Shown one piece after another: positions 1 to 19,972 of a DNA stretch of 20,000 bases. Position numbers and translations under genes: made by a program. Source of the DNA: an uncultured virus (IMG/VR IMGVR_UViG_3300050821_011122) (Duplodnaviria > Heunggongvirae > Uroviricota > Caudoviricetes). Where the stretch lies: the IMG/VR virus record IMGVR_UViG_3300050821_011122, one strand, 5' to 3'. The notes under the pieces are model-generated. The model had not been told where the DNA came from. It was given only the letters and a program-made list of their open reading frames with translations, and did no database searches. Position 1 is the first letter of the stretch. Each line of letters starts with the position of its first letter.

Positions 1-279
1 CCGTGCACGCTGGCCACGCGCCTGGCGCAGTACAGCAACATGATGCTGGTGCAGCTGCGCGCCCCGGAGTCGCGCGAGAATTTCGCGTCCACCGTGATGA
101 CGCTGCGGTTCGAGCAGATTTTCCTGGGCAGCGTGTCGGCCGCCACCCAGAGTTCGCGCAACCAGCAGACCGGGAGCAGCCCCGAGGGGTCGCTGTCCAC
201 CACCACGCCGAGCAGCGGCACCGACGGCCTGCAGAACGGCGACGGCACCTACAACAGCAATTCTTTACCCACGTTCTAA
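1..279 (+). CDS. Dit-like phage baseplate/tail protein, 3' part (truncated by window start)
   Basis: Frame 1 is open from base 1 (PCTLATRLAQYSNMMLVQL...LRFEQIF), resembling the 'T.L..Y.NM.I...L.F.EI' pattern of Dit-like N-terminal domains. Its TAA overlaps the next ATG (TAATG at 277-281). Confidence 0.6.
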   Translation, partial: PCTLATRLAQYSNMMLVQLRAPESRENFASTVMTLRFEQIFLGSVSAATQSSRNQQTGSSPEGSLSTTTPSSGTDGLQNGDGTYNSNSLPTF

Positions 280-638
280 TGTCCACTTCCCCCCAGATCG
301 TACCGCTCACCAACTCTCCTAACCAGACGTTCTCGGTGGCGCTGTCCATCGACGGCACGGTGAAGAGCTTGCAGGGGTACCTGCACTACAACGAGGTGGC
401 GGGCTACTGGGTGCTGTCCATCTACGACCTGCTGGGCAACCTCATACTGGACTCCGTGCCGTTCGTAACCGGGAACGGCTCTGGCGACGAGGCCAGCGGC
501 AACTTGCTGGGCCAGTTCGACTACCTGGGCATCGGCAGCCTATATATTCTTAACATCAGCGGCGTCACTACACCGGACTTTCCCAACTCCACCGACCTGG
601 GCGCCGACTTTCAGGCGCTGTGGGCGTCTACCCAATGA
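279..638 (+). CDS. Phage baseplate plug protein (DUF6983 / Pam3 gp18-like), 119 aa
   Basis: Starts MSTSPQIVPLTNSPNQTFSVAL; contains YN...YW.LSI.D..G..I...VP.VTG..NLL.QF.YLG; lies immediately upstream of the hub gene; start taken from the TAATG overlap. Confidence 0.75.
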   Translation: MSTSPQIVPLTNSPNQTFSVALSIDGTVKSLQGYLHYNEVAGYWVLSIYDLLGNLILDSVPFVTGNGSGDEASGNLLGQFDYLGIGSLYILNISGVTTPDFPNSTDLGADFQALWASTQ

Positions 639-1759
639 GCGCCGCCGCCCTAGCTACGCCAAACGCCGTTGCGCCTAACAAGTTCTTCGGGCGCAAGTTC
701 CAGCTCACCGTAACCCTACCGGCGGACAGTTCCGGCAACCAGCAGGTGCTATACATCCCGCAGAACTCGCTGGACCCCGAGGCGTTTCGGATTAAGTTTA
801 CCGTGTACACGGTGTTCTACCAAAAGGCGTGGTTCGCGGACATCGACATCTACAACCTGGACAAGTTCACCACCAACCAGCTCATTTCCGGGTCCGGGCA
901 AACTACCTCCACCGCTACTTCCCCAACTTCCACTATTAAACAGGGAATGGTGGCCACCCTTTACGCTGGGTACCAGAACGGCGCGTACGGGGCGATCTGG
1001 ACCGGGCCAGTGTTCCAGGCGCGGTTTACCAAGGAACAGGTGGTAGACTTTAAGATTACCTTACACTGCCTGCTGTGGCTGGACCCCTTGACCCGGACTA
1101 ATATTAACTCGACGTTTTCGGCCCTGACCAACCAGACCGACCTTATCAACCAGATTGCCAATCTGGCGTTCGGCAGCAGCGTGCACACGTCGGTGAGCGA
1201 CAGCGTCAAGTCCACTCAGCAGTCGCGCGGCGGAGTGGTATTCGGCTCGGCCAAGCAATTCTTCAATTCTACCGCCGACGACAACAACATGCAGTGGTTC
1301 CTGGGGCCGCGCGGTTTCAACTTCGCCCGGATCGACGACAACATTCAGGCGAACAGCGGCTCGGACGACGCCATCCCGACCACCACCGGGGTGCGGGTGT
1401 ACAGCCCCCCGCCGCCCGCGGGCTACCCCGCGCCCGCCGCCGACGGCGTCATCATTGGCACCCCGGAGCAGACCCAGTACGGAGTGCGGTTCCGCGTGCT
1501 GATGGACCCGGCGGTGCAGGTCACTTACCCCGCGCAGCTGGTGAAGATAGACAACAGCCAGATTATACAGCTTAAGAAAAGCTTGGGGGAATACGTGAAC
1601 GTCCTGGACCCCACGGGCACCTACATCGTGCTGGCGGCCACCTACGTGGGCGACACGCGGGGGGACGCCTGGTACACAGAGATCGAGGGCCTGACCAGCG
1701 TGGGCGGCAAGTGGGCCGCGGCGCAGGCCCTGGCGGAAAAGGCCAGCGTGAACCACTGA
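635..1759 (+). CDS. Baseplate hub protein (T4 gp27-like fold)
   Basis: FGRKFQLTV start, ADIDIYNL, LYAGY...G.IW.G.V, RG.V.FG, IG.PEQT..GV....L.DP and GDTRG..WYTE motifs; ATGA overlap at 635-638. Confidence 0.8.
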   Translation: MSAAALATPNAVAPNKFFGRKFQLTVTLPADSSGNQQVLYIPQNSLDPEAFRIKFTVYTVFYQKAWFADIDIYNLDKFTTNQLISGSGQTTSTATSPTSTIKQGMVATLYAGYQNGAYGAIWTGPVFQARFTKEQVVDFKITLHCLLWLDPLTRTNINSTFSALTNQTDLINQIANLAFGSSVHTSVSDSVKSTQQSRGGVVFGSAKQFFNSTADDNNMQWFLGPRGFNFARIDDNIQANSGSDDAIPTTTGVRVYSPPPPAGYPAPAADGVIIGTPEQTQYGVRFRVLMDPAVQVTYPAQLVKIDNSQIIQLKKSLGEYVNVLDPTGTYIVLAATYVGDTRGDAWYTEIEGLTSVGGKWAAAQALAEKASVNH

Positions 1760-2619
1760 TGGGCGCCCCCGCAACTTCGTCTTGGATCAACGTGCCGCAG
1801 CGGCTGCGGCAGCCGGAGCTTAGCTTCCTGGAGCTGCTGTTTCAATTCAGTCGCGACCTGCGTGTGGCCGTGCCGGGCATCGTACAGTCGTTTAACGCCA
1901 CCAAGCAAACTGTTACCGTGCAGGTTGCCATCCGTGAAATGATCAATGTAATTACGGCAGATGGCCAAGGGGGCGCTGCCCCGGTGCCCACACCCACGCA
2001 AATCCAGATACTGTCGGACGTGCCGATTTGCACCTACGGCGGCGGAGGATTCGAAGTTACCCTGCCTATTGCGGTCGGCGACGAATGCCTAGTGGTGTTT
2101 GGCGACAGCTGCATGAGCGCGTGGTGGGCCAACGGCGGGGTGCAGAACCCGGAGGTGAGCCGCCGCCACGACCTGTCCGACGGGTTCGCCGTCATCGGGC
2201 CGCGGTCGCAGCCGCGCAAGATTGCCAACTATTCTACCGACTCCCTGCAAATACGCTCCGACGACGGCAACACGCTGATCAACGTGAAGGCGGGTCAGGT
2301 GAACTCCACGGTGGACGGAGGCACCACCACCAGCAAGATGACGGCGGGCGACATCGTGCTCAGCCCGGACGGCGGCACCACCCAGCTAGCCATCACACCC
2401 GGGGCCATCAACCTTACCGCCGCCACCGTGAACATCAACGGCAACGAGGTGATTAGCGGCGCTTTGACCGTGGACGAGACGGCACTGATCATAGGCCAGC
2501 TTACGGTGGACAGCACGATAGTGGGCCACGACGACGCCACCATCAGCGGCATTACCTACAGCTCGCACGAGCACAGCGGCGTCACCACCGGTGGCGGAAC
2601 CTCGGGGCCTCCCGTATGA
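1759..2619 (+). CDS. Gp138-family baseplate central spike protein
   Basis: VAVPGIVQSFN...TVTVQ, L.DVP.....GGGF..TLPI..GDECLVVF.D, RRHDLSDGFA motifs; beta-strand repeats; C-terminal HEHSGV (HxH iron-binding tip); TGATG overlap at 1757-1761. Confidence 0.9.
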   Translation: MGAPATSSWINVPQRLRQPELSFLELLFQFSRDLRVAVPGIVQSFNATKQTVTVQVAIREMINVITADGQGGAAPVPTPTQIQILSDVPICTYGGGGFEVTLPIAVGDECLVVFGDSCMSAWWANGGVQNPEVSRRHDLSDGFAVIGPRSQPRKIANYSTDSLQIRSDDGNTLINVKAGQVNSTVDGGTTTSKMTAGDIVLSPDGGTTQLAITPGAINLTAATVNINGNEVISGALTVDETALIIGQLTVDSTIVGHDDATISGITYSSHEHSGVTTGGGTSGPPV

Positions 2620-3011
2620 GCACTTCGCCTGTCGCCACTTATCGGAACATCGTCAACGGCGAGCCGCAGTGGGGCCAGGGGCAGTCCAACTTCGTGGCCG
2701 ACGTGTACGCAATCGCGCTGTTGCTGCAAACTCGCCTTAGCCTATTCATGGGCGAATGGTGGGCCGATCTTAACGACGGGCTGCCGCTTTGGCAGTCCAT
2801 ACTGGGCCAGAACTCCAACGTGGCCGCCATCAGCATGCTGATCTCGCAGCGCATTCTGGCCACGCCGTATGTTGTCGGCATCGTTAGCTCCAGCGCGGTG
2901 TACGCCAACTCGCAGTTCAGCTACGCCGCAACGGTACAGACGCAGTTCGGGCCGGTAACCGTGACCAACCAGGGGCCGACGTTCCTGACGCAGTCGCTGC
3001 AGACACCATAA
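2616..3011 (+). CDS. Baseplate wedge / sheath initiator (gp25/gp46-like)
   Basis: TRL.LF.GEWW.D..DGLP..Q.ILG, IL.TP.V and V.TQFG motifs; located between spike and baseplate J. Confidence 0.8.
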   Translation: MSTSPVATYRNIVNGEPQWGQGQSNFVADVYAIALLLQTRLSLFMGEWWADLNDGLPLWQSILGQNSNVAAISMLISQRILATPYVVGIVSSSAVYANSQFSYAATVQTQFGPVTVTNQGPTFLTQSLQTP

Positions 3012-4210
3012 TGGGCGCATACGCACCTCCGGCGATCACCAGCGCGGGCCTCACCGTCCCGGGCTACCAGGCAATCTACAACTACTACATCGCCGCGCTG
3101 CAGCAGATCTACGGCCAGAGCGTGGTGATCGACAACAGCAACCCGGACGTGCAGCTCGTCTCGCTGTTCGCCCTGGCCGCCGCCGATGGGTTTTCCGCGC
3201 TGCAGCTGGACTTTAACAACCATTCCCCGAACTTCGCCATCGGCGCGGCGCTAAGCAGCCTGGTGAAGCTGAACGGTCTGCAGCGCAAGGTGGCCACGTT
3301 CTCCACCGTGGGCGTCACGCTTACCGGCACCCCCGGAACCGTCATCACCGGCGGCGTGGTGCAGGACACGGTGACCGGAAGCCGCTGGGACCTCCCGGCC
3401 TCGGTCACCGTTGGCGGCGGCGGGTCGGTGTCGGTGATAGCCACGTGCGAGACCGCCGGGGCGGTCAACATCCCGATCGGCACGGCCACCATCATCGCCA
3501 CCCCCACGGCGGGGTGGACGTCGGTAACCAATTCGGCCATCTCCACCCCGGGGCAGCCCGTGGAGGCCGACAGCCAGCTGCGCACGCGCCAGGCATTGTC
3601 CGTGGCGGCCCCCAGCGAGACGCTGCTGGCCGGGACACTGGCCGCCATTGCGGCGGTGCCGAACGTCACGCGGTACGCCATCGACGAGAACACCGGGAGC
3701 ACGACCAACGGAAACGGCACCCCGGGCCACAGCATCCAGGCCACGGTGGAGGGCGGCGCGCAGGCGGCTATCGCCCAGGCCATCTTCGCCAACCGCGGCA
3801 TCGGCTGCGGCACGTTCGGCGACGTGACGGTCGCCGTGACCGACCCCAACACAGGCATCACGCTCAACATCAGCTTTAACCAGCCGCCCACGTACGTGCC
3901 GATTTACGTCATCATCAACGCCCACCTGCTGCCCGGCGGCACCAGCGCCACGCTGACGGCCATCGCCCAGGCCGTGGCCGCCTACATCAACAGCCTGCAG
4001 ATCAGCGGGGGCGGCGGCGTCATCAGCTTCGGCGAGCTGATCACGGCGGCGGCCAGCGTAAACGCGAACCCGGACGAGCCCGTGGTTTCCATACGCTCGC
4101 CGTTCTACTTCGGCACTAGCGCCAGCCCCAGCACCAGCACCGACGTGGCACTGGCCTTTGGGGACGCGGCCCAGGGCGCGGTGGGCAACATCACGGTGAA
4201 CTCCGTATGA
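3011..4210 (+). CDS. Baseplate J / gp47 family wedge protein
   Basis: GLTVP.Y, PD.Q, A.GA.L..LV.LNGL.RK.AT.S.V, ATC...GA, GW.SVTN, E.D.QLR.RQ, ENT, GHSI...VEGG motifs. Confidence 0.92.
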   Translation: MGAYAPPAITSAGLTVPGYQAIYNYYIAALQQIYGQSVVIDNSNPDVQLVSLFALAAADGFSALQLDFNNHSPNFAIGAALSSLVKLNGLQRKVATFSTVGVTLTGTPGTVITGGVVQDTVTGSRWDLPASVTVGGGGSVSVIATCETAGAVNIPIGTATIIATPTAGWTSVTNSAISTPGQPVEADSQLRTRQALSVAAPSETLLAGTLAAIAAVPNVTRYAIDENTGSTTNGNGTPGHSIQATVEGGAQAAIAQAIFANRGIGCGTFGDVTVAVTDPNTGITLNISFNQPPTYVPIYVIINAHLLPGGTSATLTAIAQAVAAYINSLQISGGGGVISFGELITAAASVNANPDEPVVSIRSPFYFGTSASPSTSTDVALAFGDAAQGAVGNITVNSV

Positions 4211-5595
4211 GAAAATCACTCGCTGTACTGCTTCTACTCGGCGCGGCGCTACCGGCCCTGGCCCAGATCACCCCGGAGCTGGGGTTCAACGTTCCGCCAT
4301 ACGGCACGCTGAACTGGAACGTGCCGTACAACTCCAACTGGCTGGCCCTGGACCAGTACCTTTCCGGCAGCACCTCCACGGTCATACTCGGCAACCCCGG
4401 CCCGCTGTTCGGCGGCCCCATCAGCTTCAGCCAGACCAACGGCGGCGTGCTGTTCTCGGCGCTGCCCACGGTCTACCCCAACGGCTCGCAGTTGTACTGC
4501 AAAGACTGCAACACCAACTGCACCGCCGGGAGCAGCACGGGCAAGACCTGCTTTAGGGAGAACGGCGTGTGGACCGGGGTGTCGAGCGGCGGTTCCGGCG
4601 TCACCAGCGTGGGGCTGGTGGGTACCGCTAACGAAATCACAGTCACCGGGACTAGCCCCATCATTGCCACCGGCTCCTGGACCTTATCCTTGCCCAGTCC
4701 TCTCACCCTATCCACCGCCACCAACGTGCCCAGCGGCGCCACCCTTACCATCCAGTCCGGCGGCTCGCTGGTGTGCGCCGGAGGTTCCACTTGCCCAGGT
4801 GGCACTGGCAGTTTCCCCACCAACCAGTCTTTGGGCGACACCGTGCGCTATAGCGTGTACGGCGACAGCAAGTGGGACGCCGCCCAGTCCGGCATGAGCA
4901 TCAGCCTGGGCTGGTACAACGACCAGGCGCAGGGCGTGCCCATCTGCTACGGGGCCATCGGGTGCAGCCACCCCGTGGCCGAGGGTTCGTTCGCCAACGT
5001 GTACGCCAACGGCACCAACAGCCCGGGGGCCACCTACTCCGCCGCGGCCACGGCCTCGACCTCGGACGTCATCGGCATGGACGTGGGCGCGGGGGCGAAC
5101 TTCGGCGACTGGGGGTTCGGCAACTTCTACCGCCTGGCCTTCAGCTGGGCCGCCGGTAACACGACCAACGTGCGGTATTGGCTTGGCATGACGGCGTTCA
5201 ACACCGGCGGCGCCGGGTGCAGCACGGCCCCGCCGCGCTCCACTACCTGCTACGCCACCAACACGCCCAACACCAGTGCCCTGGTCTTCCGGTACTCGGC
5301 GGGCACAGACACGCACTGGCAGGCCGTCAGCATCAACGCCGGGACGGCCACGGTGACCAGCACCGGCGTGGCCGTCGACACCAACCCGCACCTGTTCGAG
5401 ATCGCGGCGGCCATTGGCGGGGGCTACAACTACTACATCGACGGCGTGCTTACGGCCACCATCACCACCAACCTGCCCTCGGTCACGGCGCAGTCTTCTC
5501 TGACCGAGACCATCATTTTCTGGACCGGGGACAACGAGAACACGGCCACGGCCATCGCCGGGACTAGCTACTGGATGTCCATGAGCGAGAAATAA
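4207..5595 (+). CDS. Sec-signal-peptide-bearing, Cys-rich tail-fibre-like protein (462 aa)
   Basis: MRKSLAVLLLLGAALPALA|Q signal; fibre-type N-terminal motif TPELGFNVP..G..NWNVPYNSNWLALD; GVTSVGL...ITVTG.SPI..TG fibre-shaft motif; C-terminal beta-sandwich/lectin-like region (YYIDGVLTAT). Coupled to both neighbours (ATGA, TAATG). The CDS is solid; the function is inferred. Confidence 0.65.
   Translation: MRKSLAVLLLLGAALPALAQITPELGFNVPPYGTLNWNVPYNSNWLALDQYLSGSTSTVILGNPGPLFGGPISFSQTNGGVLFSALPTVYPNGSQLYCKDCNTNCTAGSSTGKTCFRENGVWTGVSSGGSGVTSVGLVGTANEITVTGTSPIIATGSWTLSLPSPLTLSTATNVPSGATLTIQSGGSLVCAGGSTCPGGTGSFPTNQSLGDTVRYSVYGDSKWDAAQSGMSISLGWYNDQAQGVPICYGAIGCSHPVAEGSFANVYANGTNSPGATYSAAATASTSDVIGMDVGAGANFGDWGFGNFYRLAFSWAAGNTTNVRYWLGMTAFNTGGAGCSTAPPRSTTCYATNTPNTSALVFRYSAGTDTHWQAVSINAGTATVTSTGVAVDTNPHLFEIAAAIGGGYNYYIDGVLTATITTNLPSVTAQSSLTETIIFWTGDNENTATAIAGTSYWMSMSEK
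4726..4797 (+). repeat. 72-bp imperfect repeat, copy 1 (VPSGATLTIQSGGSLVCAGGSTCP)
   Basis: By manual alignment, 58/72 nt and 20/24 aa identical to 7699-7770. Confidence 0.9.
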
Positions 5596-6200
5596 TGGGC
5601 GCCGGGTCGGGAGGGCTTGGCGGCGGAGGCTACGGCGGCCCCAACCTGCAGTACTACCTGTCGCTGCTCACCAGCGAGTGGCAGGCCACGGCCAAGTTCC
5701 AGGCGTGGGTGGCGGCCCTGCTGACGCCGCTGGTAGACCTGCAGTCGGCGGCGCTGGCCATGTACGCGTTCTTCGATGTGGACAACGCCATTGGCGCGCA
5801 ACTGGACGCGCTGGGCACGCTAGTGGGGCAGGGGCGCCAGGTGCCGTTCCAGCCCTCGGGCGGGGTAAGCCCCGTACTGGACGACCCCACGTACCGCGTG
5901 CTGCTGAAGGCCAAGATCATACAGAACCAGTTCGATGGCCAGATCGACAGCCTGTACGCCGCGTGGGCGCAGCTGTTCCCGGGCACGCGCTTTATCTTCA
6001 TCGACAACATGAACATGACGGCCACGGTCGAGATCGCCGGGGTGTTCACCAGCATCCTGCAGGACCTGATCACCAACGGGCTGATCGTGCCGCGCCCGCA
6101 GGGCGTGCAGTACACGTACTCGTTCGCCACGCTCCCGCTGTTCGGGGTGGACCTGAACAACTCCATCATCGCGGGCGTAGACATAGGACACATCGCATGA
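5595..6200 (+). CDS. DUF2612 family baseplate wedge protein (gp48/gpI-like)
   Basis: Y..LLTSE, FDVDNAIGAQLDALG..VG..R, L.D..YR.LLKAKI..N..DG, DNMNMT, VPRPQGV motifs. Confidence 0.9.
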   Translation: MGAGSGGLGGGGYGGPNLQYYLSLLTSEWQATAKFQAWVAALLTPLVDLQSAALAMYAFFDVDNAIGAQLDALGTLVGQGRQVPFQPSGGVSPVLDDPTYRVLLKAKIIQNQFDGQIDSLYAAWAQLFPGTRFIFIDNMNMTATVEIAGVFTSILQDLITNGLIVPRPQGVQYTYSFATLPLFGVDLNNSIIAGVDIGHIA

Positions 6201-6808
6201 GCACCAACTTTGTCGTATTTAATCCAGGCTGCGCCAACCAGGAGTCGGACGCAACTTATGCCTCCGACGCCACGCGCACCGGCGGTTACGCCACCGACCA
6301 GATCGTGCCCAGCCCACTGCTGAATAAAGCCACCTACCAGCCCAGCATCGGGATTACCGCCTTGATGCAGTCGCTGGTGGCCAAGGGTTATAGCCCGAAC
6401 GACGGCTCGGCGGCCCCGGCTAGCGCGCTGGCCAACCTCGTCGCCGTCCTGGCCAACATCATGACCAACGCCGACGTGCTTACGGCCATCAGCCTAGGCA
6501 ACCAGGCGGGTTACGTCAAGTTCGGCCCCGCATTCGGCAACCTGATGGTCCAATGGGGCGTCGTCAGCGGCGTCAGCTCGAATGTGTCTAATGTGGTCAC
6601 CTACCCCCAGGCGTTCAGCGGGTCCGGCGGCTCGGCCCCGTTCAACATGCTGGTTCCGTACTTCCCAGCGGGCGTGCTCGGGACCATCACGCAGTGGGGC
6701 GTGAATTCCGGGGCGTCCACCCCGCTCACCACCTTCACCTTCGAGGTTTCCTCCAGCACCACCGCCACGCTCAACATGGGGTGGTTCGCCATAGGTAAGC
6801 ATTCATGA
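6197..6808 (+). CDS. Short tail fibre / baseplate-anchored adaptor with C-terminal gp53-like domain (203 aa)
   Basis: N-terminal TNF..F......N......Y.....R..G.......S...NK...Q.S anchor motif; C-terminal GYVKF...LMVQWG...VTYP.AF...WFAIG; start from ATGA overlap at 6197-6200. Confidence 0.8.
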   Translation: MSTNFVVFNPGCANQESDATYASDATRTGGYATDQIVPSPLLNKATYQPSIGITALMQSLVAKGYSPNDGSAAPASALANLVAVLANIMTNADVLTAISLGNQAGYVKFGPAFGNLMVQWGVVSGVSSNVSNVVTYPQAFSGSGGSAPFNMLVPYFPAGVLGTITQWGVNSGASTPLTTFTFEVSSSTTATLNMGWFAIGKHS

Positions 6809-8748
6809 GGAAAATACTTTGCTTTCTGCTGCTCTCCTGCTCCCTCGCCGCGGCCCAGAACTTCCTTACCGTGGCGGGCTCGAACACCTACGGCTACGGC
6901 AACGCCCTGCTGCCCTCCGGCAGCCTCATTTTTACCGCCACCGACTCGCACGGCGCCCCCATCAGCTACCAGGCCGGTGGCGGGGGCCAGGTTGTCCGCT
7001 ACCCCACCGCCTGCTCCATCGCCAACGGCGTCATCGCCAGCGGGTGCCAGGTGGCCAACGTGTCGGTGTCTAACCCCGCCAATTTCTGCTACTCCGTGCA
7101 GATCGTGGACGCCGCCAACCGGCTGGTGCTCGGCGGCCCCCAGTCCGGCTACAACTGCGTGCAGCCCCAGACCACCAACTTTTGGTGCGCCTCCGGTACC
7201 TGCAATTTCGACCAGTACGTGCCCAACATCCCCACGGCCCTCACCATGCTGCTGCCGCTGCCCAAGGCACTCAGCATCGGCGGGGTATACGCGTTCACCT
7301 GCCCCGTTGGGCTGGTGGCCAACGGCGTGCTTACCACCGGCCTGCTGTCGTGCGTTACCGGCGGGGGCGGCGGGGGCCTTACCTTTCCCATTTTGGCCCC
7401 GAACGGCGGCATCAACGCTCCGTCCTACACCTTCCAGAACAATCGTGACTTGGGCTGGTCCCTCGACACGACCAATACTTCGGTGTACTTCCAGTTCGGA
7501 GAGAGCGATGCCATGGGGTGCGGCACGGCCTTCCTGGGGGGAGTCGGCGGCGGCCCGCTGGACTGCGGCATCCAGCTGGAGGCGGCCCAGAATTTCTTCT
7601 TTACTAGCACCAGCTACAGCGTCCCGCTGCTGTCCATCAGCAGCGCGGGCGTCACCGTGGGCGCGAACGCTCCGTTGAACGTGAACGGCGGCGAGAGCGT
7701 GCCCAACGGCAGCACCCTTACCATTCAGCCGGGCGGGTCGCTGGTGTGCGCCAGCGGCAGCACCTGCCCCGCCCCCGGGGTTACGGCCTTCGCGGCGCTG
7801 ACGCCGGGGGTTAACGCTACGCCCACGCCATTCGGCATTGCGCCCAGCTCGGCGTTGGGGGGTAGCACGCCCGACTTCAGCGTGCTCGGGGCCGTGGGGG
7901 ACGCCAACACCGGCCCCGTGGTGAATATAGACACCCCCACCGGGTCGCAGCAGAACAGCTTCCGGGCGGGGGTTAATGGCGTATCCCAATTGCAAACCTG
8001 CTGGCAGCCGGGGCCGCTGGGGGAAATGGTGTTCGGGTCCACCGTGGCCTGCCCATCCATCTACACCACCGTGTTCGCCAAGAACGTGTTCCAAGACGGC
8101 GCCACCGGCCACACGGGCGCCCGATTCTGGCAGTCCAGCGGCGCCTACGTCGGGGACTTCCTACAATTCAACACGGCCACCGCCGCCGGGACGGGGTTCA
8201 ACGCGCTCACCCTGTATACCGGGGTGACTGGCAGCGACACCTACCATGCCGGCGGGGTGCTGGTGGCCCAGCTCGACGGCAACGGGGACTTCCTTGGCAG
8301 CAGCTTCGGCGGCGTCAACCCGTCCGCCCCCATCCAGATCCTAACCTCGGTCCCAGGCGGCACGGCCTGCGTCCCGACCGGTGGCAAGTCCCAGATCGCC
8401 ATAGGTTCGGACGGCAACTTCTACTCCAGCAACAACGGCGGCGCGTGCGTGCGGCTGGGCACCGCGGTGGACGTCATCAATGGGACGGCCTCCATGCCCG
8501 TCACCGGGATATCTGCGGGAACGTGCTCTACCGTGACGGTGTCGGCCCCGGGCGTGCTGTCCACCGACTCAATCAACTGGACCCCCAACGCGTCAATCAA
8601 GGCGGTTAACGGGTACTCGCCCCCCGCCGCTCTAGCCATACAGTCCTACCCTACCGCTAATTTCGTGAACTTCGACGTCTGTAACAACGCCCCCACCGGC
8701 AGCGTCACACCTGGGGCCGTTACGTTGAACTGGCGGGTGGCCCGATGA
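6805..8748 (+). CDS. Sec-signal-peptide-bearing, Cys-rich tail-fibre-like protein (647 aa)
   Basis: MRKILCFLLLSCSLAAA|Q signal; N-terminal adaptor-like beta domain; poly-Gly hinge; G...APSYTF fibre motif; compact C-terminal beta domain (ISAGTCSTVTVSAPGV...VNFDVCNN...VTPGAVTLNWRV); ATGA overlaps at both ends. Confidence 0.65.
   Translation: MRKILCFLLLSCSLAAAQNFLTVAGSNTYGYGNALLPSGSLIFTATDSHGAPISYQAGGGGQVVRYPTACSIANGVIASGCQVANVSVSNPANFCYSVQIVDAANRLVLGGPQSGYNCVQPQTTNFWCASGTCNFDQYVPNIPTALTMLLPLPKALSIGGVYAFTCPVGLVANGVLTTGLLSCVTGGGGGGLTFPILAPNGGINAPSYTFQNNRDLGWSLDTTNTSVYFQFGESDAMGCGTAFLGGVGGGPLDCGIQLEAAQNFFFTSTSYSVPLLSISSAGVTVGANAPLNVNGGESVPNGSTLTIQPGGSLVCASGSTCPAPGVTAFAALTPGVNATPTPFGIAPSSALGGSTPDFSVLGAVGDANTGPVVNIDTPTGSQQNSFRAGVNGVSQLQTCWQPGPLGEMVFGSTVACPSIYTTVFAKNVFQDGATGHTGARFWQSSGAYVGDFLQFNTATAAGTGFNALTLYTGVTGSDTYHAGGVLVAQLDGNGDFLGSSFGGVNPSAPIQILTSVPGGTACVPTGGKSQIAIGSDGNFYSSNNGGACVRLGTAVDVINGTASMPVTGISAGTCSTVTVSAPGVLSTDSINWTPNASIKAVNGYSPPAALAIQSYPTANFVNFDVCNNAPTGSVTPGAVTLNWRVAR
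7699..7770 (+). repeat. 72-bp imperfect repeat, copy 2 (VPNGSTLTIQPGGSLVCASGSTCP)
   Basis: Matches 4726-4797. Confidence 0.9.
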
Positions 8749-11700
8749 CCAAGCGCTTATTCCTAACCGCGCTGCTGTGCGGGCTGTGCCATGGGCAGGT
8801 GTCCGGCGGCGCCGTGTTTAACGGCCAAGTATCCTTCCGTTTAACCAACGGCGCCCCGCAAGTTCCGGCGCTGCCCATGTTCTGGGTGGACAACAACGAG
8901 GGGCTATGCGTCGTCTCAGCTACCTGCTACCCGGGATCCCCGGCCCTGACAGTACCCTACGTAACACCCGCCTACGCCCTCACTCTTACCCCCGGCGGCG
9001 GCGCCTGGTCCCCGAGCCAGCCGGCCTGCGTGCTGCACGCCGGGGCCTACGCCGACTCCGCTCAGGGGCTGCAGTACGCCTGGAACGACCAGGACTACTG
9101 CGACACGAACTTCGGCGTGGGGTTCATAGTCAAGGTTCCCACGCCCGCCACCTCTGAAACGGCGACGGGATGCCCGGCGGGCTGGTACTGCTTCAGCAAG
9201 GCGGTAAACAACTACGGCGGCGTGATACCCAATTCCAGGTCGTCGCTCTCTGTCATTCCCAAGATAACGGAGTCGGTGTACGACTCAACTCTAGCGGCCA
9301 TGCCGCAGCCCGTATGCGCCGGGGGCGTAGAGGATAACGTCGCATCGGCCACCCAGCCCGGCCTCAACAACCCGGACTGCACCGGCAGGAATATGTACTA
9401 CCAGGCCGGGCCGCAGAACGACCAGGGCGTGATTTCCGGAATCGTCACGGTATCGGTCAGCACGACGGGCTGGGGTTCGGTCATCTCGACGGGCACGCAA
9501 TTCCTTCCCCTCAGGAACGGCTACGTGTCGGCCACGCTGGCCCCCACCACCACGGCCTCGAATAACGGCTGCGCCAGCGGCTACCTATCCGTCGATAGCG
9601 GCATTAATCAGGAGTGCGTGCGGTCCATTGCGCCCACGCCCGGGACGGCGTCCAACCAGGGCGGGCTGTACGGCAACTTCACCAAGACGCACACCTACCC
9701 ATTCCCCGTTACCTACACGCCCGACTCCGGCGCGGGCTCGGGCACCTTCGCCCTGGCTAATGGTATCGCCACCAGCATTTCGGCTTACAACTACCTGCAG
9801 TACATGCCGCAAATCGGGATCAACTTCGCGGGCGGCTTGCCGTTGCAGCTGTGCACCGCTAGCGCCATCACGGGCGGCAGCGTCAACGTTAATTGCGCCA
9901 CCAACCAGGGCCCGTCCAACTGGACCTTTGCGGATCTCGCGGTAGCCTTGTGCCCTGGCCCGGTCAGCGGCTGCGCGGGGGCCAGCAACAACCAAAACCT
10001 TGTGGCGACCGGCAACGGCGTGACCGCCCAAGCCGTATCCTCGTGCGTTACCGCGCCGTTCGCCGCGTATTGCTACACCCAGTACGCCCATGACATCCAC
10101 TTCCGCCGCATCTGGGCACATGGCGATTGGACAAGTTTGTACGCCGGAACGAACGCGGTGGCGGACGGCTTTAATCTCAGCGGCTGTTATTACTGTTCAG
10201 TCATCGACTATCAAGTCAGCCAAGCCCTGCGCCCCGGCGAGGAGGGCCACTGCGTACTGAACCAGGGGAATACCACCAAGATCAGCAACGGATGGTGCGA
10301 GGGAATGTCCAGCGGAGTATTGCAGGGTGGCGTCATCATCGCACCGGCATGGCTCGCATACAACTCCGGGAGCGATCTGCAGCTCACGCGCTATCGGGGG
10401 ACGTTTCCTTATTCTTGGCTGGGCTGGCAGTGCTCGAACAACCCCAGCTCGACGCCGACGAACAACAACAACGGCTGCTACAACATCCCCGGGACGAATG
10501 CCTACTGGGGCGGGGCGGGCGACAACTATGCCGCTCTTACCTGCGGCCAGCCGGGCGTGACGTGCGTAAATATCGCGAGCGGGGGAACCGCGGTGACCTA
10601 CGTCAGTGGCCCGCCATTCCATGATGCTAATTCGTTCTGGAGCGTCGGACACCAAAAGGTCTTGGTCAACGGCAGCGACGTCAACATTGGGTCGCTCGGT
10701 CCAGGAACCTGCTCTTGGCCTTTGGGAACGGGCTGCCCGACGACCATGACTCTGCAAACCGCCGCGACGGGATGTTCCTCGGGCTGCACCAACGCCACGT
10801 TCGTATTTAATGGAAATTCTTTAGTCCGCAAGAATGCGGCTGAGTTGAAGCAGGGTCAGCGGATACTTATCGCTGGCGCCATCCTGGAGAACGTGGACAA
10901 CAGCGGCGGCCAAAACGGAATCGGCTTCGCCAACGCAGTCAGGAGCATTTCCGGAGTTCCCACCGGCGCGGCCTACAACACCATCATGTCGGACATCACC
11001 GTCCAGGGAATCATCATGCGTAATCTTTGCGATGGATTCACCGACAGCGGCGGGCGATCGGCCAACTCCACCAGCGGCGACGGCGTGTCCTACGCGCAGG
11101 CCAGGTTTAGCTATGTGGACGCGCTCGGTTACAATATATCGCTGACTAATCCAGGTTGTGGCGGCAGCAGCTATGCCATGACGCAGGCCTCAGCGGGCCA
11201 GTTCTGGAACGTCACCGCTCAGGAGAATACGGCGGGAACCGCGGTAGCACTGACTGCAATTGCTTCGGTGGACGCCGGGCAGAACGTTGTACAGGCCACC
11301 CCTTCCGGGGCTAATACAGTCTATTTAACTACCGGCTCAACTGCGGCGCTCAACGCCATACTGTGCGGGTCGCCCAGCGGCGCGTATGTGTTCGTGTTCG
11401 GGTTCGTCAACGCCGGTAACAACTCCCCAGCCGCGGGTTTCCAGTGCGTATCCTCCACCAATACGTCGCCGCTGACCATAACCCTGGCCAATTCCGGAGG
11501 CGTGGCCGAGGGGCCGATAGCCACCCCAGCCATCAACAACGCCAACCCAATCTTGAACAACACCTCCGGGATTTGCTCTGGCGCGGTGGTCTCCGTCACC
11601 TGCCCCGCCGTGGGTTTCCAGGTCCTCGACATGCTGCCTAGTGACCCCGCGGCGCTGCTCGGCGTCTCCAGTTACGCGCCCACGATTTCCGGCGCTGCCT

Positions 11701-12620
11701 GCGCGACATTCGCAATGCCCAACCAGACGGTTGGCGGAAACATCATTCCCGCTGGTGTCGGGCCTTTGCTTTCTTCCGGTACTACCCCGTGGACTGGAAC
11801 CTGGAACACGGGAAATGTGACGATCACCTATCCATGGGTTGCAACCCCGCTGGCTTCTGATCCAAGCGGCTATTGCGTTCTATCCAACACCCAGGGTAGC
11901 CCAGCGCACGTCACCCACAACCATGAAACCCTGATCACTACAGCCCTTGAGACCATCGGAAACGGCCCAGCCCCGACCCCTCACGGGCCTCCGTTCATCA
12001 CCGGCTTTAATCTGAGCAATAGCATCATCGGGAACAAGGGCAATGCTTACACCCTGGCCGATGGTTCCACCACGACGCCCCTCAACACCGGCAGCCCCAC
12101 GGCCCTGTACAACTCGTCCACCAACCTGCCGCACGAGGGCCAGAGCACGGAGTCCTTCAACTACGACGTCACCACCATGTCCTTGTTCGACGACGTGTGG
12201 CCGGGGCGGGCGGCGCAGTTCACGCAGTCGAGCGCCGGGTGCTACGTGGAGTACGGCAACAACCCGCTCCACCCGGACCCCGGCGGTTGCACGGGCGCGG
12301 GGTGCGCTCCGACCGGCGGCTGCACGGGCAGCGGCGGGACGCTCCCGACCATGAGCTTCCCGGCGGCGCTGCACTGCTCCGGGGCCACGGCCACCAGCGC
12401 GTGCGTGGGCTTTGCGGCGGCCATGAGCGCGGCCAGCACGCCGCTCACCATGGCCGACTACCACGGCTGGACGCTGGTCGGCACCAGCTCGTTCCACAAC
12501 GCGGCCTCGGACGGCACGGACGTGGGGGCCAGGATCGCCAACATCGACTCCGCGCTGACCAACAACCTGTACGTGTGCGGCACGCCCTGCGGGGCGCCCG
12601 GGCCGTTCCCGGACCACTAG
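8745..12620 (+). CDS. Large signal-peptide-bearing, Cys-rich protein, probably a right-handed beta-helix (pectin-lyase-like / depolymerase tailspike), 1291 aa
   Basis: MTKRLFLTALLCGLCHG|Q signal; beta-helix-like rungs (HDIHFRRIWAHG, KISNGWCEG, RKNAAELKQGQRILIAGAILEN, SDITVQGIIMRN); C-terminal SSFHNAASDGTDVGARI motif resembling the ends of secreted beta-helix proteins. Confidence 0.6.
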   Translation: MTKRLFLTALLCGLCHGQVSGGAVFNGQVSFRLTNGAPQVPALPMFWVDNNEGLCVVSATCYPGSPALTVPYVTPAYALTLTPGGGAWSPSQPACVLHAGAYADSAQGLQYAWNDQDYCDTNFGVGFIVKVPTPATSETATGCPAGWYCFSKAVNNYGGVIPNSRSSLSVIPKITESVYDSTLAAMPQPVCAGGVEDNVASATQPGLNNPDCTGRNMYYQAGPQNDQGVISGIVTVSVSTTGWGSVISTGTQFLPLRNGYVSATLAPTTTASNNGCASGYLSVDSGINQECVRSIAPTPGTASNQGGLYGNFTKTHTYPFPVTYTPDSGAGSGTFALANGIATSISAYNYLQYMPQIGINFAGGLPLQLCTASAITGGSVNVNCATNQGPSNWTFADLAVALCPGPVSGCAGASNNQNLVATGNGVTAQAVSSCVTAPFAAYCYTQYAHDIHFRRIWAHGDWTSLYAGTNAVADGFNLSGCYYCSVIDYQVSQALRPGEEGHCVLNQGNTTKISNGWCEGMSSGVLQGGVIIAPAWLAYNSGSDLQLTRYRGTFPYSWLGWQCSNNPSSTPTNNNNGCYNIPGTNAYWGGAGDNYAALTCGQPGVTCVNIASGGTAVTYVSGPPFHDANSFWSVGHQKVLVNGSDVNIGSLGPGTCSWPLGTGCPTTMTLQTAATGCSSGCTNATFVFNGNSLVRKNAAELKQGQRILIAGAILENVDNSGGQNGIGFANAVRSISGVPTGAAYNTIMSDITVQGIIMRNLCDGFTDSGGRSANSTSGDGVSYAQARFSYVDALGYNISLTNPGCGGSSYAMTQASAGQFWNVTAQENTAGTAVALTAIASVDAGQNVVQATPSGANTVYLTTGSTAALNAILCGSPSGAYVFVFGFVNAGNNSPAAGFQCVSSTNTSPLTITLANSGGVAEGPIATPAINNANPILNNTSGICSGAVVSVTCPAVGFQVLDMLPSDPAALLGVSSYAPTISGAACATFAMPNQTVGGNIIPAGVGPLLSSGTTPWTGTWNTGNVTITYPWVATPLASDPSGYCVLSNTQGSPAHVTHNHETLITTALETIGNGPAPTPHGPPFITGFNLSNSIIGNKGNAYTLADGSTTTPLNTGSPTALYNSSTNLPHEGQSTESFNYDVTTMSLFDDVWPGRAAQFTQSSAGCYVEYGNNPLHPDPGGCTGAGCAPTGGCTGSGGTLPTMSFPAALHCSGATATSACVGFAAAMSAASTPLTMADYHGWTLVGTSSFHNAASDGTDVGARIANIDSALTNNLYVCGTPCGAPGPFPDH

Positions 12621-12636: not shown

Positions 12637-12987
12637 ATGGAACCGAACATCGTATTCAGCCAGCTAACCGGGGGCGCCGCGTGCGCCTACCTGCTGCTGC
12701 TGCTGCAAAAGTGGAGCAAGCTGCCGTGGATCACGGCGCACACCACGTGGATCAACTTCATGGTCCGCGTCGTCTTCTCGCTGGCCACCAACCTGGGCAT
12801 CCAGGCCGTGTGGGCCAGCAACGTCAGCACGCCCGGCGGCCACGTGCTTACCGTGACGGTGCCGCCCGCCGTCGAGATCCTGCACTTCGCCTGGGTGTGG
12901 TTCGGGCAGTACGCCATGCAACACGGGTGGCTCAACCTGTTCACCATGAGGCCGGTGACGCCGCCGCTGGTGGCGGAGAGCAAGTAG
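12637..12987 (+). CDS. Small membrane protein, holin candidate (116 aa)
   Basis: Purine-rich RBS (AAAAAAGGGGG) upstream; 2-3 hydrophobic segments; first gene after the tail module. Confidence 0.5.
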   Translation: MEPNIVFSQLTGGAACAYLLLLLQKWSKLPWITAHTTWINFMVRVVFSLATNLGIQAVWASNVSTPGGHVLTVTVPPAVEILHFAWVWFGQYAMQHGWLNLFTMRPVTPPLVAESK

Positions 12988-14108: not shown

Positions 14109-14534
14109 ATGCTGACCTACGAGCAGAACACTGGCCAGCTGTACGACGCGGGCATGAATCCTTTGGGCGCGCCCGGCTACAGCGGCCACCCGCCGCACGT
14201 GAACGACCCGGCGGCGCAGGGCATGGTGGACGTGGGGCCCATTCCCGCGGGCCTGTGGAACATGGTCAGTATGGTCACCGAGGGCGCCGCGCAAGGGCCG
14301 TACGTGATCGTGCTGCGCCCGGCCAGCGGGGAGTTCCGCGCGGCCATACTGGCCATGGGGCGCAACCCGGACACTTTCCTGTGCCACGGGGACCTGGTAG
14401 AAAGCCCGGGCGCCGAGCTGGCCAGCGACGGCTGCATCATACAGCCGCGCATGGTCAGGATAGAGATGTACAACGAGCCCGACAAGCAGCTAAACGTGGT
14501 ACCAACCGTCACAATACAAGGAGCTACAATATGA
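14109..14534 (+). CDS. Tlde1 / DUF2778 (L,D-transpeptidase fold) peptidoglycan enzyme, probable endolysin
   Basis: TY.Q.TG.L, GYSG, N.P..Q....VGPIP.G.W, GP..I.L.P, GR..F..HGD......ASDGCII with catalytic His and Cys; GGGAG RBS. Confidence 0.85.
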   Translation: MLTYEQNTGQLYDAGMNPLGAPGYSGHPPHVNDPAAQGMVDVGPIPAGLWNMVSMVTEGAAQGPYVIVLRPASGEFRAAILAMGRNPDTFLCHGDLVESPGAELASDGCIIQPRMVRIEMYNEPDKQLNVVPTVTIQGATI

Positions 14535-15112
14535 AATTCAACAAGCAAGTGTTCTGGAAGCTAATCGGCGTCTTCGCGATCCTGGATTTGATCATTCTAA
14601 CGACCGGGTGCGCGGACTGGGAATCACAAGCCTCAAGCATCATCACGTTATTGGGACCGGCCATTCAGGCGGCCATCGCAATCCTCGCCGCCTTCGGCGT
14701 GGGCGTCAGCGCCACGGTGCAGGAGCAGTTCGCCGCGTGGTCGGCGCAGGCCCAGACAGACCTAGTCACCATCAAGGGGCTTATCAGCCAGTACCAGGCC
14801 GCCGCGGCCAGCGCCCAGCCCGGCATCTTAAACGAGATCATCGCCGTGGTGGGCACCACCAACACGAACCTGAGCAGCATCCTGACGGCGCTGCACGTGA
14901 CGGACGCCACCACGCAGGCGCGGATTGCGGCGGTGTTCGCCGCAATCACGGGCATGCTGACGGCCATCGTCAACCTGGTCCCGGCGGTGCAGGGTCAGGT
15001 AAGCACGGAACGGCGCCTGGAGCTGTACAAGCTGTTCAAGAGCAAGGCCAGCCAGTTCAAGTCCACGTTCAACGCGGCGGCGGGCGTGTTCGGCAAGCAG
15101 TACCAAATATAG
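14531..15112 (+). CDS. Predicted alpha-helical lipoprotein, spanin candidate (193 aa)
   Basis: AAGGAG RBS and ATGA overlap; MKFNKQVFWKLIGVFAILDLIILTTG|C27 lipobox-like signal; Ala-rich helices with two further hydrophobic segments; directly follows the endolysin candidate. Confidence 0.55.
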   Translation: MKFNKQVFWKLIGVFAILDLIILTTGCADWESQASSIITLLGPAIQAAIAILAAFGVGVSATVQEQFAAWSAQAQTDLVTIKGLISQYQAAAASAQPGILNEIIAVVGTTNTNLSSILTALHVTDATTQARIAAVFAAITGMLTAIVNLVPAVQGQVSTERRLELYKLFKSKASQFKSTFNAAAGVFGKQYQI

Positions 15113-18694: not shown

Positions 18695-19972
18695 TTACTT
18701 TTCTTGAAATTTTCGAAGTTCGTGAAGCCAAGTATTTTTTATTTCTTTTTTGTCCGCCAACGATTTTAAATGGTTTATTAGTTCTTTTCCATTCTTAAAT
18801 TCTTTAGGATCAAAAGGGGAATATTTGAAGCCAAGAGTCATTCCGTTAAGACATTTTTCTATATTTTCTATATCAGTTTTGTATATATGCCGGGATGCTG
18901 CATTTTGATAAAGAAATCCTAAGGTTAAATCCAGTTTTGATTCAATTAGAATGTAAGCGGCCCACATGCTGAAGGAAAAAATATCGTATGGAACTCCTAG
19001 GTATACATCGCTAGACCTCATGTTAACTACAAGATCAAGTCTTTTTTCTCTAATTAAAAAGTGACAGGTTAAGGTGCAAGGAATGTCTTTTGAAGCTTTA
19101 GGATTTTTTCTCCATATGCTGGCGACTGCTTGACGAGTATTAGGATCTTTGCGCAGGGTCCTTATAAGGTAGTCCGTTTGCTTTTTTAGAGGAGGTCCAT
19201 AAGCGCCAAAGAAGTTAAAGCCATTGTCACTAAAATTGGATATAATTTTACTGTAAGGCGCAAGTGTTTTAACTCTATTGTCTCCCGAAAGAATCCAAGC
19301 AGCTTCTGCGCACATAAAACGATAACCAAGTTTTCTTTCTACCACTGTAAGTACAGGTGTGTCCATCCTCACTATTATCTGGGAATTTATTAATTCTTTT
19401 GTTTCTTTTCCTCGAGGATAAACTGCAGCCCCATGATAATAGACGTCGCAAAGAAGACGAAGCCAAGCGGAATCCATAGAAAGAGGACCTATTTCACGCA
19501 CTCGATGCCAAAGTCTAGTTCCTGTAGATATATCTCCAATTGGAGTAAAAGGTTTGTTTCTATTCTTGATTCTCCTCAGTGCACATTTTGTCGATTGGGT
19601 ATCTTTGGCTTTCCAAGGTTTATTAGATCTATTAACCAACATATTTCTTCTTTTTCGATCGTCCTTCCAAGCTTCTACGAGAGTTCTACTGTGCCTTCTG
19701 CCGTTATTTAGCGCGTTACATAATTGCCGGACGGGAAATTTTGCCATCCATGCTTTTTCAGAAATATCCTCAATTATAGTTAAGTTTATGATAATGGGGT
19801 CCACGGTTAAGGATCTTAACCAATTAACTAATCGAGCATTTGCTTTTTTTCCTCCATATCTTTTTAAAGATAGATGTTGGCCTAAACGTTCTTGTAAAGT
19901 TAAAGCAGTAGATCCAACATACTTTATTATCTCTATTTTTCTTGGATCTGCTAAGCCATAAACAGTTTTCAT
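18695..19972 (-). CDS. GIY-YIG nuclease domain fused to a thymidylate synthase family enzyme (dCMP-type, likely dCMP methylase/hydroxymethylase)
   Basis: aa 1-90 VYGLADPR...KYVGST...L.ERL.QH...E.AW...LCN; aa ~166-425 PRG..TKEL, EAAWILSG, GAYGP, D..TRQA, DIPCT, MRSSDVYLGVPYD, S.HIY; SD-like AAGGGGG upstream. Confidence 0.85.
   Translation of the reverse strand: MKTVYGLADPRKIEIIKYVGSTALTLQERLGQHLSLKRYGGKKANARLVNWLRSLTVDPIIINLTIIEDISEKAWMAKFPVRQLCNALNNGRRHSRTLVEAWKDDRKRRNMLVNRSNKPWKAKDTQSTKCALRRIKNRNKPFTPIGDISTGTRLWHRVREIGPLSMDSAWLRLLCDVYYHGAAVYPRGKETKELINSQIIVRMDTPVLTVVERKLGYRFMCAEAAWILSGDNRVKTLAPYSKIISNFSDNGFNFFGAYGPPLKKQTDYLIRTLRKDPNTRQAVASIWRKNPKASKDIPCTLTCHFLIREKRLDLVVNMRSSDVYLGVPYDIFSFSMWAAYILIESKLDLTLGFLYQNAASRHIYKTDIENIEKCLNGMTLGFKYSPFDPKEFKNGKELINHLKSLADKKEIKNTWLHELRKFQEK

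Follow-up and report, generated by a model that had tools for sequence, protein, structure and literature searches.

Tailed-phage assembly is regarded as wholly cytoplasmic, and tail fibres are expected to be free of signal peptides. Host export is used by other phage proteins, such as the signal-peptide and signal-arrest-release (SAR) endolysins, the spanin lipoproteins, and the coat proteins of filamentous phages. The endolysins and spanins have phage-encoded Sec signals, as do the genes described here, but they are not receptor-binding parts of the virion; the filamentous-phage coat proteins are Sec-type virion parts that cross the membrane, but they are assembled at the membrane, whereas tailed phages are assembled in the cytoplasm. 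Here, we describe a stretch of 20,000 nucleotides from an uncultured soil virus of the Caudoviricetes (IMG/VR record IMGVR_UViG_3300050821_011122), hereafter referred to as the window, in which three large genes of a baseplate operon, encoding P0001, P0002, and P0003, begin with predicted Sec-type leaders followed by Gln. In the literature searched, with supplements and subscription journals outside its scope, no description of signal peptides on tailed-phage tail fibres was found.

The closest verified precedent is Cellulophaga phage phi18:3. Three adjacent large proteins of this phage (gp085–gp087; KC821620) have Sec-type leaders, like the three in the window, with Gln at the +1 position in gp086 and gp087. 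In GenBank, the record annotates gp085–gp087 as 'structural protein' on the basis of experimental tandem mass spectrometry (MS/MS) proteomics, and nine further MS-supported structural proteins in the stretch examined carry no leader. Phage phi18:3 is a cultured podovirus (Pachyviridae) of a Bacteroidota host and, unlike the window proteins, gp085–gp087 contain few Cys residues (0, 1, and 3). The presence of Gln immediately after the cut, called the Q-rule for signal peptidase I substrates, has been reported as characteristic of Bacteroidetes, other groups forming a continuum (PMC5837995), and five genes of unknown function in Porphyromonas gingivalis phages are described as obeying it, which was read as adaptation to host secretion (PMC10367356). 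The likeness is that Gln stands right after the cut in most members of the P0001–P0003 families. The differences are that the likely host here belongs to the Acidobacteriota, not the Bacteroidetes, and that the P. gingivalis phage genes are not tail fibres.

The first 12.6 kb of the window form, on the plus strand, a single tightly coupled contractile-tail baseplate operon, which encodes, in this order, a Pam3 gp18-like plug, the hub, a gpV spike with Apex, a gpW-like wedge protein, J, P0001, a DUF2612 protein, a 203-aa stub, P0002, and P0003. Judged by J, the closest relatives in culture are phages of Burkholderia, and the same order of spike, wedge, J (40.7% identity), DUF2612-type protein, and fibre is seen in gp22–gp26 of Burkholderia phage Magia (NC_070954). 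However, Magia has one leaderless fibre of 642 aa, whereas the window has the leaderless stub and three leader proteins, one of which lies between J and the DUF2612 protein. P0002 did not resemble the Magia fibre, and tblastn of P0001 against cultured phages gave no match.

Leaders of the three proteins

The N-termini are MRKSLAVLLLLGAALPALA/QITPE for P0001, MRKILCFLLLSCSLAAA/QNFLT for P0002, and MTKRLFLTALLCGLCHG/QVSGG for P0003, where the slash marks the predicted cut. Leaders were called with a rule set of our own, not with a trained predictor such as SignalP; to be called, an N-terminus had to combine a basic n-region with a hydrophobic, uncharged h-region as its core and with small residues at both −3 and −1, all in a span of roughly 15–30 residues. 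P0001–P0003 all have these features (3/3 called), while none of the 16 remaining window proteins was called, and the plug, hub, gpV, gpW, gpJ, DUF2612, and stub proteins are all without a leader. The initial annotation, which had ascribed Sec/signal-peptidase-I-type leaders followed by Gln to these three large genes and none to the flanking canonical baseplate genes, is thus upheld by the translations and the caller. Its further statement that each cleavage precedes Gln stands for P0001 and P0002; for P0003, the caller places the cut at VSG/G, three residues past CHG/Q, while the family alignment favours G/Q.

It might be argued that these N-termini are artefacts of wrong starts or chance hydrophobicity, but this seems scarcely credible. 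Each of the three ATGs is the earliest possible start of its open reading frame (ORF) and forms an ATGA with the preceding TGA, this overlap being the ground on which the initial annotation had called an artefact unlikely. In control runs, only 6 of 4781 internal 50-residue windows from the window proteins were called (0.13%), and the leaders recur in independently predicted homologues and related loci. When the first 50 residues were shuffled, 110, 258, and 218 of 5000 sequences were called for P0001, P0002, and P0003, respectively, and since these are few, leader composition alone explains little. A lipoprotein (signal peptidase II) reading of P0002 was considered because of the LLSC at residue 12 and was rejected, as this motif is absent from P0046–P0050; no lipobox was found in the N-termini of P0001 and P0003.

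Surveying the relatives confirmed that the signal peptides are kept. A word-indexed search returned relatives for each protein (P0001, 40; P0002, 9; P0003, 29), and the family counts given here include the query. Leaders were called in 28/41, 8/10, and 22/30 members of the respective families, the members not called including incomplete gene predictions and several with a plain leader whose n-region is long; Gln occupied +1 in 26/28, 7/8, and 16/22 of the called leaders. When the P0001 family was used as a search profile, 2987 proteins passed E ≤ 0.001; among the best 150 of these, 62 were leader-called, 42 of them with Gln at +1. In a looser pass over 142 P0001-family members of at least 300 aa starting with Met, 74 were leader-bearing, 52 leaderless, and 16 ambiguous. 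Between P0001 and P0006, 8 of 18 leader residues are identical as compared with 39 of the first 40 mature residues; between P0002 and P0046, the corresponding values are 9/17 and 40/40. The rise in conservation falls exactly at the predicted cut in both pairs, while the leader drifts. The pair of P0003 and P0055 (3/19 and 4/40) is uninformative on this step. On these sequence comparisons, we take the leaders of the three families to be inherited.

The P0003 relatives found in genome loci all (8/8) belong to Terriglobales or Acidobacteriaceae metagenome-assembled genomes (MAGs), and the host is probably a diderm member of the Terriglobales (Acidobacteriota). In one of these genomes, of which 400 kb were sampled evenly, leaders were called in 49 of 317 genes, and Gln was the commonest +1 residue (15/49 leaders), followed by Gly (7). 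Therefore, the phage leaders look like host leaders. Alignment A1 of the P0001 family had no match in two Acidobacteriaceae genomes. Across 401 Acidobacteriota genomes, the P0002 N-domain had just one match, at the start of a leaderless protein; in the genomes searched, the P0002 lineage occurs as a prophage seldom or never.

The mature parts are also rich in Cys. Mature P0001, P0002, and P0003 contain 10, 18, and 44 Cys residues, all even numbers and arranged in close pairs, as against 7 Cys in a total of 1826 residues for the seven leaderless baseplate proteins. A related viral locus, L001, shows the same contrast: of its two leader proteins, one has 21 Cys and the other 31, as compared with 3, 4, and 3 in its J, a 709-aa protein, and its stub. 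Within the P0001 family, the mean Cys content is 1.79% in the leader-bearing members (n = 74) and 0.95% in the leaderless ones (n = 52), a difference whose significance is overstated by the kinship of the sequences.

These data also bear on the idea that the N-termini are uncleaved membrane anchors or assembly helices, for example an inner-membrane tether, or that they have no function because Sec is blocked late in infection. Cleavage is a prediction here, and the calling of 2–5% of the shuffled N-termini of the same composition would fit a composition that is simply hydrophobic. However, the small −3/−1 residues and the +1 Gln are kept across the families, conservation begins exactly at +1, the leaders are as short as cleaved signals (16–22 residues), the parts behind them are Cys-rich, and the chromosomal homologues of the host have the same type of leader. 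We consider uncleaved or idle N-termini improbable.

Architecture of the proteins and gene order in related loci

P0001–P0003 are of receptor-binding or depolymerase type, and their genes, like those in related loci, sit in the tail module past the baseplate wedge genes. Pfam, PHROGs, and NCBIfam contained no family for any of the three, and searches of PDB sequences with profiles A1, A2, and A3 gave nothing usable (three matches for A2, E 0.27–0.52). In the P0001 family, conservation is limited to residues about 200–462, and the N-terminal part varies. In the AlphaFold2 (AF2) model of P0001, the predicted local distance difference test (pLDDT) has block means of about 72–98 in the lectin region, mostly above 85 past residue 260, and the mean over the whole chain is 68, the Gly/Ser/Thr-rich shaft being unmodelled. 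Foldseek matched the C-terminal domain to GH16 glucanases in the PDB (best 1byh, E 7.6e-8) and to uncultured Caudovirales proteins in BFVD (E down to 8.7e-13), some of them named SO2946-like C-terminal, LamG, or Mtd-N. An enzymatic reading was rejected: the GH16 catalytic motif, which we take to be E-x-D-x(0,1)-x-E, was not matched by a regular-expression search, and A1 contains no invariant Glu pair. Because this motif is absent, the modelled domain is read as a lectin-like fibre tip, not an enzyme. The botulinum/tetanus Hc and NTNHA chains among the fold matches were set aside as sharing only the common jelly-roll fold.

Of the three, only P0002 shows the layout expected of a tail fibre, in which a conserved N-domain on the particle side is joined to an interchangeable distal part. 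Directly after the leader, its N-domain is 67–86% identical in P0046–P0049, which have other C-termini, and P0054 joins a P0002-type N-domain to Beta_helix/NosD. With the P0002 sequence as the sole query, no relative was found in viral contigs. As a separate observation, residues 153–197 of P0001 and 278–322 of P0002 form a common 45-residue shaft segment (53% identity) ending in Cys-x5-Cys, as if a module had been passed from one fibre to the other.

The protein encoded at 6197, immediately upstream of P0002, appears to be a short leaderless fibre stub, since its residues 1–85 align with residues 1–86 of the Magia tail fibre gp26 (37% identity, E 3e-4) and a weak gp53-like C-terminal domain lies at its end. 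Locus L001 has a J that is 51% identical and a stub that is 39% identical to those of the window, and the gene after its stub encodes MKKLLALLTLVILSSVACPG/QQNFMTV (a cut of the form CPG/Q), that is, a leader and a P0002 N-domain (56% identity over 172 aa), followed by a distal part much longer than and unrelated to that of P0002. Stub homologues were found in 15 viral loci, nine of which are near-identical copies of one phage. The order J, DUF2612, leaderless stub (320–333 aa), and then at least one leader protein was seen in the L048 group, L049, and L059; L055, close to L049, ends before the leader gene, and L060/L061 and L062 are too short to show the order. In L048, L050–L054, L056, and L058, the leader gene after the stub starts inside the stub end, with an overlap of about 60 nt at the longest ORF, and a leader is seen only when the protein is read from an internal Met, 24 codons further on.

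Sixteen viral loci contain P0001-family genes. Leaving out L015, in which the gene is cut by the contig end, the matched gene was leader-bearing in 14 of 15 loci, L006 being the exception. The leader genes in these loci occur in runs of two to five that close the structural modules, of the myovirus type in L002 (sheath, tube, and tape measure) and podovirus-like in several others (phrog_598), and in several loci the run stands directly before the endolysin. Leaderless counterparts were also found: P0183 and its relatives share the N-terminal domain of the leader-bearing P0206 (42% identity over 202 aa), and the leaderless P0016 joins DUF2460 to the lectin domain. Since such counterparts have the same domain order, the same architectures are used with and without export.

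The P0003 model most resembles tailspikes and polysaccharide-modifying enzymes. VIA gave a Z of 25.2 against the Det7 tailspike (6f7d; root-mean-square deviation 5.7, 315 residues aligned), 23.3 against the Sf6 tailspike (2vbm), 22.7 against CBA120 TSP2 (6w4q), and 24–25 against alginate epimerases and polygalacturonases; Foldseek returned GH110 enzymes and the HK620 and Sf6 spikes (E down to 3.7e-6). No enzyme family is assignable to P0003, as polygalacturonases and alginate epimerases/lyases score as well as tailspikes. P0003 shares the beta-helix fold and the position at the end of the tail module with the spikes Det7 gp208, Sf6, and CBA120 TSP2. However, these spikes are made without a signal peptide and bind the particle through an N-terminal domain, whereas P0003 has a leader and an N-terminus common to chromosomal bacterial proteins. 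A tailspike-like fold has also been described for WceF of Pantoea stewartii, a bacterial secreted glycan-modifying enzyme (PMC7949094). By that description of its fold, WceF is like the host homologues of P0003; it is chromosomal and not phage-encoded.

P0003 is collinear with relatives of 1100–1330 aa, and viral contig L018 also has a leader-bearing member of the family. In five MAG loci, a P0003-like module makes up the N-terminal 1000–1200 residues of a secreted protein, which is about 3000 aa long where the gene call is whole; an example of the leaders of these chromosomal proteins is MRQLLALMFLVSLAVG/Q. A Pfam scan of one such locus, L024, found He_PIG, Big_3_5, and cadherin-like domains in the remainder of the giant chain. 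The giant gene of L024 adjoins the CofC, CofD, CofH, and F420-ligase genes, the other four loci have the same neighbours by gene starts, and three further loci with P0003 relatives adjoin a 2-oxoacid dehydrogenase E2 gene. Because P0003-like modules sit in Acidobacteriaceae/Terriglobales MAG loci, the family is chromosomal in the likely host.

Two side observations concern this family. One is that it ends (window 12560–12620; alignments A2 and A5) in a nearly invariant C-G-x-P-G-P-F-P-D with no hydrophobic tail after it, and in the 3000-aa host proteins this motif falls at the internal boundary of the module. The other is that in Acidobacteriaceae locus L025 (G002 contig C3), a 1177-aa P0003 homologue is followed at 11559–12252 by a Peptidase_M15_3 gene and a gene for a 62-aa hydrophobic protein; these two genes resemble the lysis pair of a phage, yet they adjoin a 2-oxoacid dehydrogenase E2 gene.

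Other features of the window

The features of the window are collected in Table 1. The real start of the gpV gene may be a few codons further downstream. The protein encoded after P0003 had no family match in Pfam, PHROGs, and NCBIfam. The Tlde1-domain (L,D-transpeptidase-like) protein occupies the place expected for an endolysin, and the same phrog_24118 family follows a leader-bearing fibre gene in L007 (8978–9640). The predicted lipoprotein encoded next to it may be spanin-like or another phage lipoprotein. The minus strand encodes a MazG-like protein, a family A DNA polymerase, a dCMP deaminase, and a thymidylate synthase; the window is a phage genome and not a tail-like injection system. 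The G+C content is 0.60–0.68 across the structural genes and drops to 0.38 at the far end (19–20 kb). In the thymidylate synthase ORF (18695–19972, minus strand), ThyA corresponds to residues 170–376, and the N-terminal extension has a weak GIY-YIG match (E 0.0033); fusion with, or insertion of, a homing endonuclease may account for the extension and the low-G+C end. Neither Rfam nor tRNA scanning turned up anything in the window. The nearest record is a 22.7-kb IMG/VR fragment (G001), whose P0003 is 100% identical to that of the window.

Table 1. Coordinates of the plus-strand features of the window (numbers after family names are E values; a slash marks a predicted cut)
Feature	Position	Strand	Basis and remarks
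Baseplate plug-like protein	3..638	+	Pfam Pam3_gp18 2.4e-9; without leader
Baseplate hub	620..1759	+	phrog_196 baseplate hub 3.5e-36; without leader
gpV-type baseplate spike, Apex motif	1711..2619	+	Pfam PF18352 1.4e-27, Apex 1.7e-5; without leader
gpW-like wedge subunit	2616..3011	+	phrog_120 3.8e-22; without leader
Baseplate J wedge protein	3011..4210	+	Baseplate_J 1.9e-16; phrog_6 2.2e-44; TGA overlaps P0001 ATG
P0001, 462 aa: leader, Gly/Ser/Thr-rich shaft, C-terminal ConA-like lectin domain	4207..5595	+	
P0001 leader, 19 aa, predicted cut ALA/Q	4207..4263	+	Leader caller, family, conservation step
P0001 lectin-like jelly-roll domain, residues about 210–462, family-conserved part	4834..5592	+	BLAST mapping, AF2, Foldseek
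DUF2612 baseplate protein	5595..6200	+	PF11041 2.1e-27; Magia gp25 counterpart; without leader
Putative leaderless fibre stub, 203 aa: tail-fibre N-terminal domain and gp53-like C-terminal domain	6197..6808	+	Gp53-like_C 2.2e-5 (weak)
P0002, 647 aa: leader, conserved N-domain, variable distal part	6805..8748	+	
P0002 leader, 17 aa, predicted cut AAA/Q	6805..6855	+	Family, conservation step
P0002 conserved N-domain, residues 18–185, candidate docking module	6856..7359	+	Identity to P0046–P0049 and L001 leader protein
P0003, 1291 aa: leader and large beta-helix protein, acidobacterial secreted-protein family	8745..12620	+	
P0003 leader, 17 aa if cut at CHG/Q	8745..8795	+	Translation, family
P0003 residues 332–1291, modelled right-handed parallel beta-helix	9738..12617	+	AF2 pLDDT 65.6, predicted template modelling score (pTM) 0.66
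Small membrane protein, holin-like by position	12637..12987	+	Hydrophobic segments in translation
Tlde1-domain protein, possible lysis-region cell-wall enzyme	14109..14534	+	PF10908 3.8e-7; phrog_24118 4.4e-22
Predicted lipoprotein, 193 aa, MKFNKQVFWKLIGVFAILDLIILTTG/C, lipobox LTTG/C	14531..15112	+	ATG overlaps Tlde1 gene stop

Probable export and proposed docking of the three proteins

Export of P0001–P0003 through Sec, with cleavage by signal peptidase I, is very probable, because the leaders are kept in homologues, conservation steps up at the cut, the +1 Gln is host-like, and the mature chains are Cys-rich with even numbers of Cys. The initial annotation had proposed export followed by docking at or after lysis; the export half of this proposal agrees with the conserved leaders, the step, and the Cys content, and the docking half is a suggestion drawn from the architecture, namely, the P0002 N-domain behind the stub and the leaderless relatives. 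Taken whole, the route in which P0001–P0003 are true Sec/signal-peptidase-I substrates of the receptor-binding type, issued from the translationally coupled operon of a cytoplasmic baseplate and attached to particles at or after lysis, is in our judgment evenly poised. The sequences and models show the leaders with their conservation, the folds, the order of the genes, and that leaderless relatives exist; export, cleavage, disulfide formation, docking, and the time of docking are all steps that we infer.

The route would run as follows. The leaders would carry the chains through the inner membrane of the diderm host and be cleaved off before Gln, and the Cys-rich chains would then fold oxidatively in the periplasm. 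Lysis would bring this periplasmic pool to fibre-less particles, whereupon P0002 would dock via its N-domain, probably on the stub or on the DUF2612/J wedge, and P0001, as a lectin-tipped fibre, would probably dock likewise via the domain behind its leader. P0003, as a glycanase-like beta-helix, would act on the surface polysaccharide of the host, either particle-bound or free. Attachment after lysis is physically plausible, since T4 and P22 fibres and spikes attach to particles in vitro.

The main rival explanation, which we find somewhat less probable and which the initial annotation had also named as an alternative, is that the proteins are exported but never become particle-bound. They would then be accessory proteins of the periplasm or medium, co-expressed with the tail for timing only, and might degrade or mask exopolysaccharide or receptor glycans for progeny escape, block superinfection, or serve as decoys. 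This explanation fits P0003 best, a glycanase-type beta-helix that lines up from end to end with secreted proteins encoded on Acidobacteriaceae chromosomes, and it agrees with the variable N-terminal regions and conserved lectin domain of P0001, as well as with the established construction of tailed-phage particles in the cytoplasm. However, the P0002 N-domain, found with swappable distal parts beside a stub in two phages whose J proteins are 51% identical, has the look of a docking module, which a free enzyme does not need. The leaderless relatives retain the domain order, and through their ATGA coupling the genes belong to the baseplate operon itself, with the P0001 gene standing between J and DUF2612. 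Moreover, in phi18:3, the proteins with leaders are annotated as virion components.

Several points weigh against attachment of periplasmically matured proteins to the particle, or against parts of the evidence for it. The leader calls, read from sequence, come from our heuristic and not from SignalP. The leader of P0003 may simply have come with a captured host gene, and P0003 is without a phage-specific docking domain, its N-terminus being common to the chromosomal 3000-aa secreted proteins. In the P0001 family, C-terminal conservation with N-terminal variability is the reverse of the pattern of an anchor with a variable tip. The lectin-domain Cys are alike in the two classes of this family (2.96 in leader-bearing and 2.85 in leaderless members); the excess of the leader-bearing members sits in the N-terminal and shaft parts; even Cys counts occur in 45/74 leader-bearing and 23/52 leaderless members, a modest difference. 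The plant-type glutaminyl cyclase PF05096, which could turn the +1 Gln into pyroglutamate as in Q-rule substrates, was found in neither of two Acidobacteriaceae genomes (0/2), the animal-type (M28-like) cyclase not having been searched. The stub could be a complete short fibre in its own right, which would also suit free accessory proteins. Finally, gp085–gp087 of phi18:3 have no sequence similarity to P0001–P0003 or to any of the relatives collected, and virion preparations such as that of phi18:3 can hold co-purified proteins.

The wider possibility, which we put forward tentatively, is that the virions of tailed phages of some diderm soil and marine phyla are made in two compartments: the head, tail, baseplate, and stub in the cytoplasm, and the disulfide-bonded fibres and spikes in the periplasm via Sec, the two being joined only at lysis. 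If true, this would be a morphogenetic route not described for the Caudoviricetes. Should the periplasm be where receptor-binding proteins mature, fibres would be attached after lysis, and phage fitness would depend on the Sec and disulfide machinery of the host; such maturation would also explain oxidatively stabilised fibres in soil phages. The receptor-binding proteins of uncultured phages would then be best predicted without the leader and expressed without it in an oxidising compartment, and the P0003 family would link the surface-glycan enzymes of hosts with phage spikes. Should P0001–P0003 turn out to be free secreted enzymes, they would still represent a conserved, operon-embedded secretome of lytic phages.

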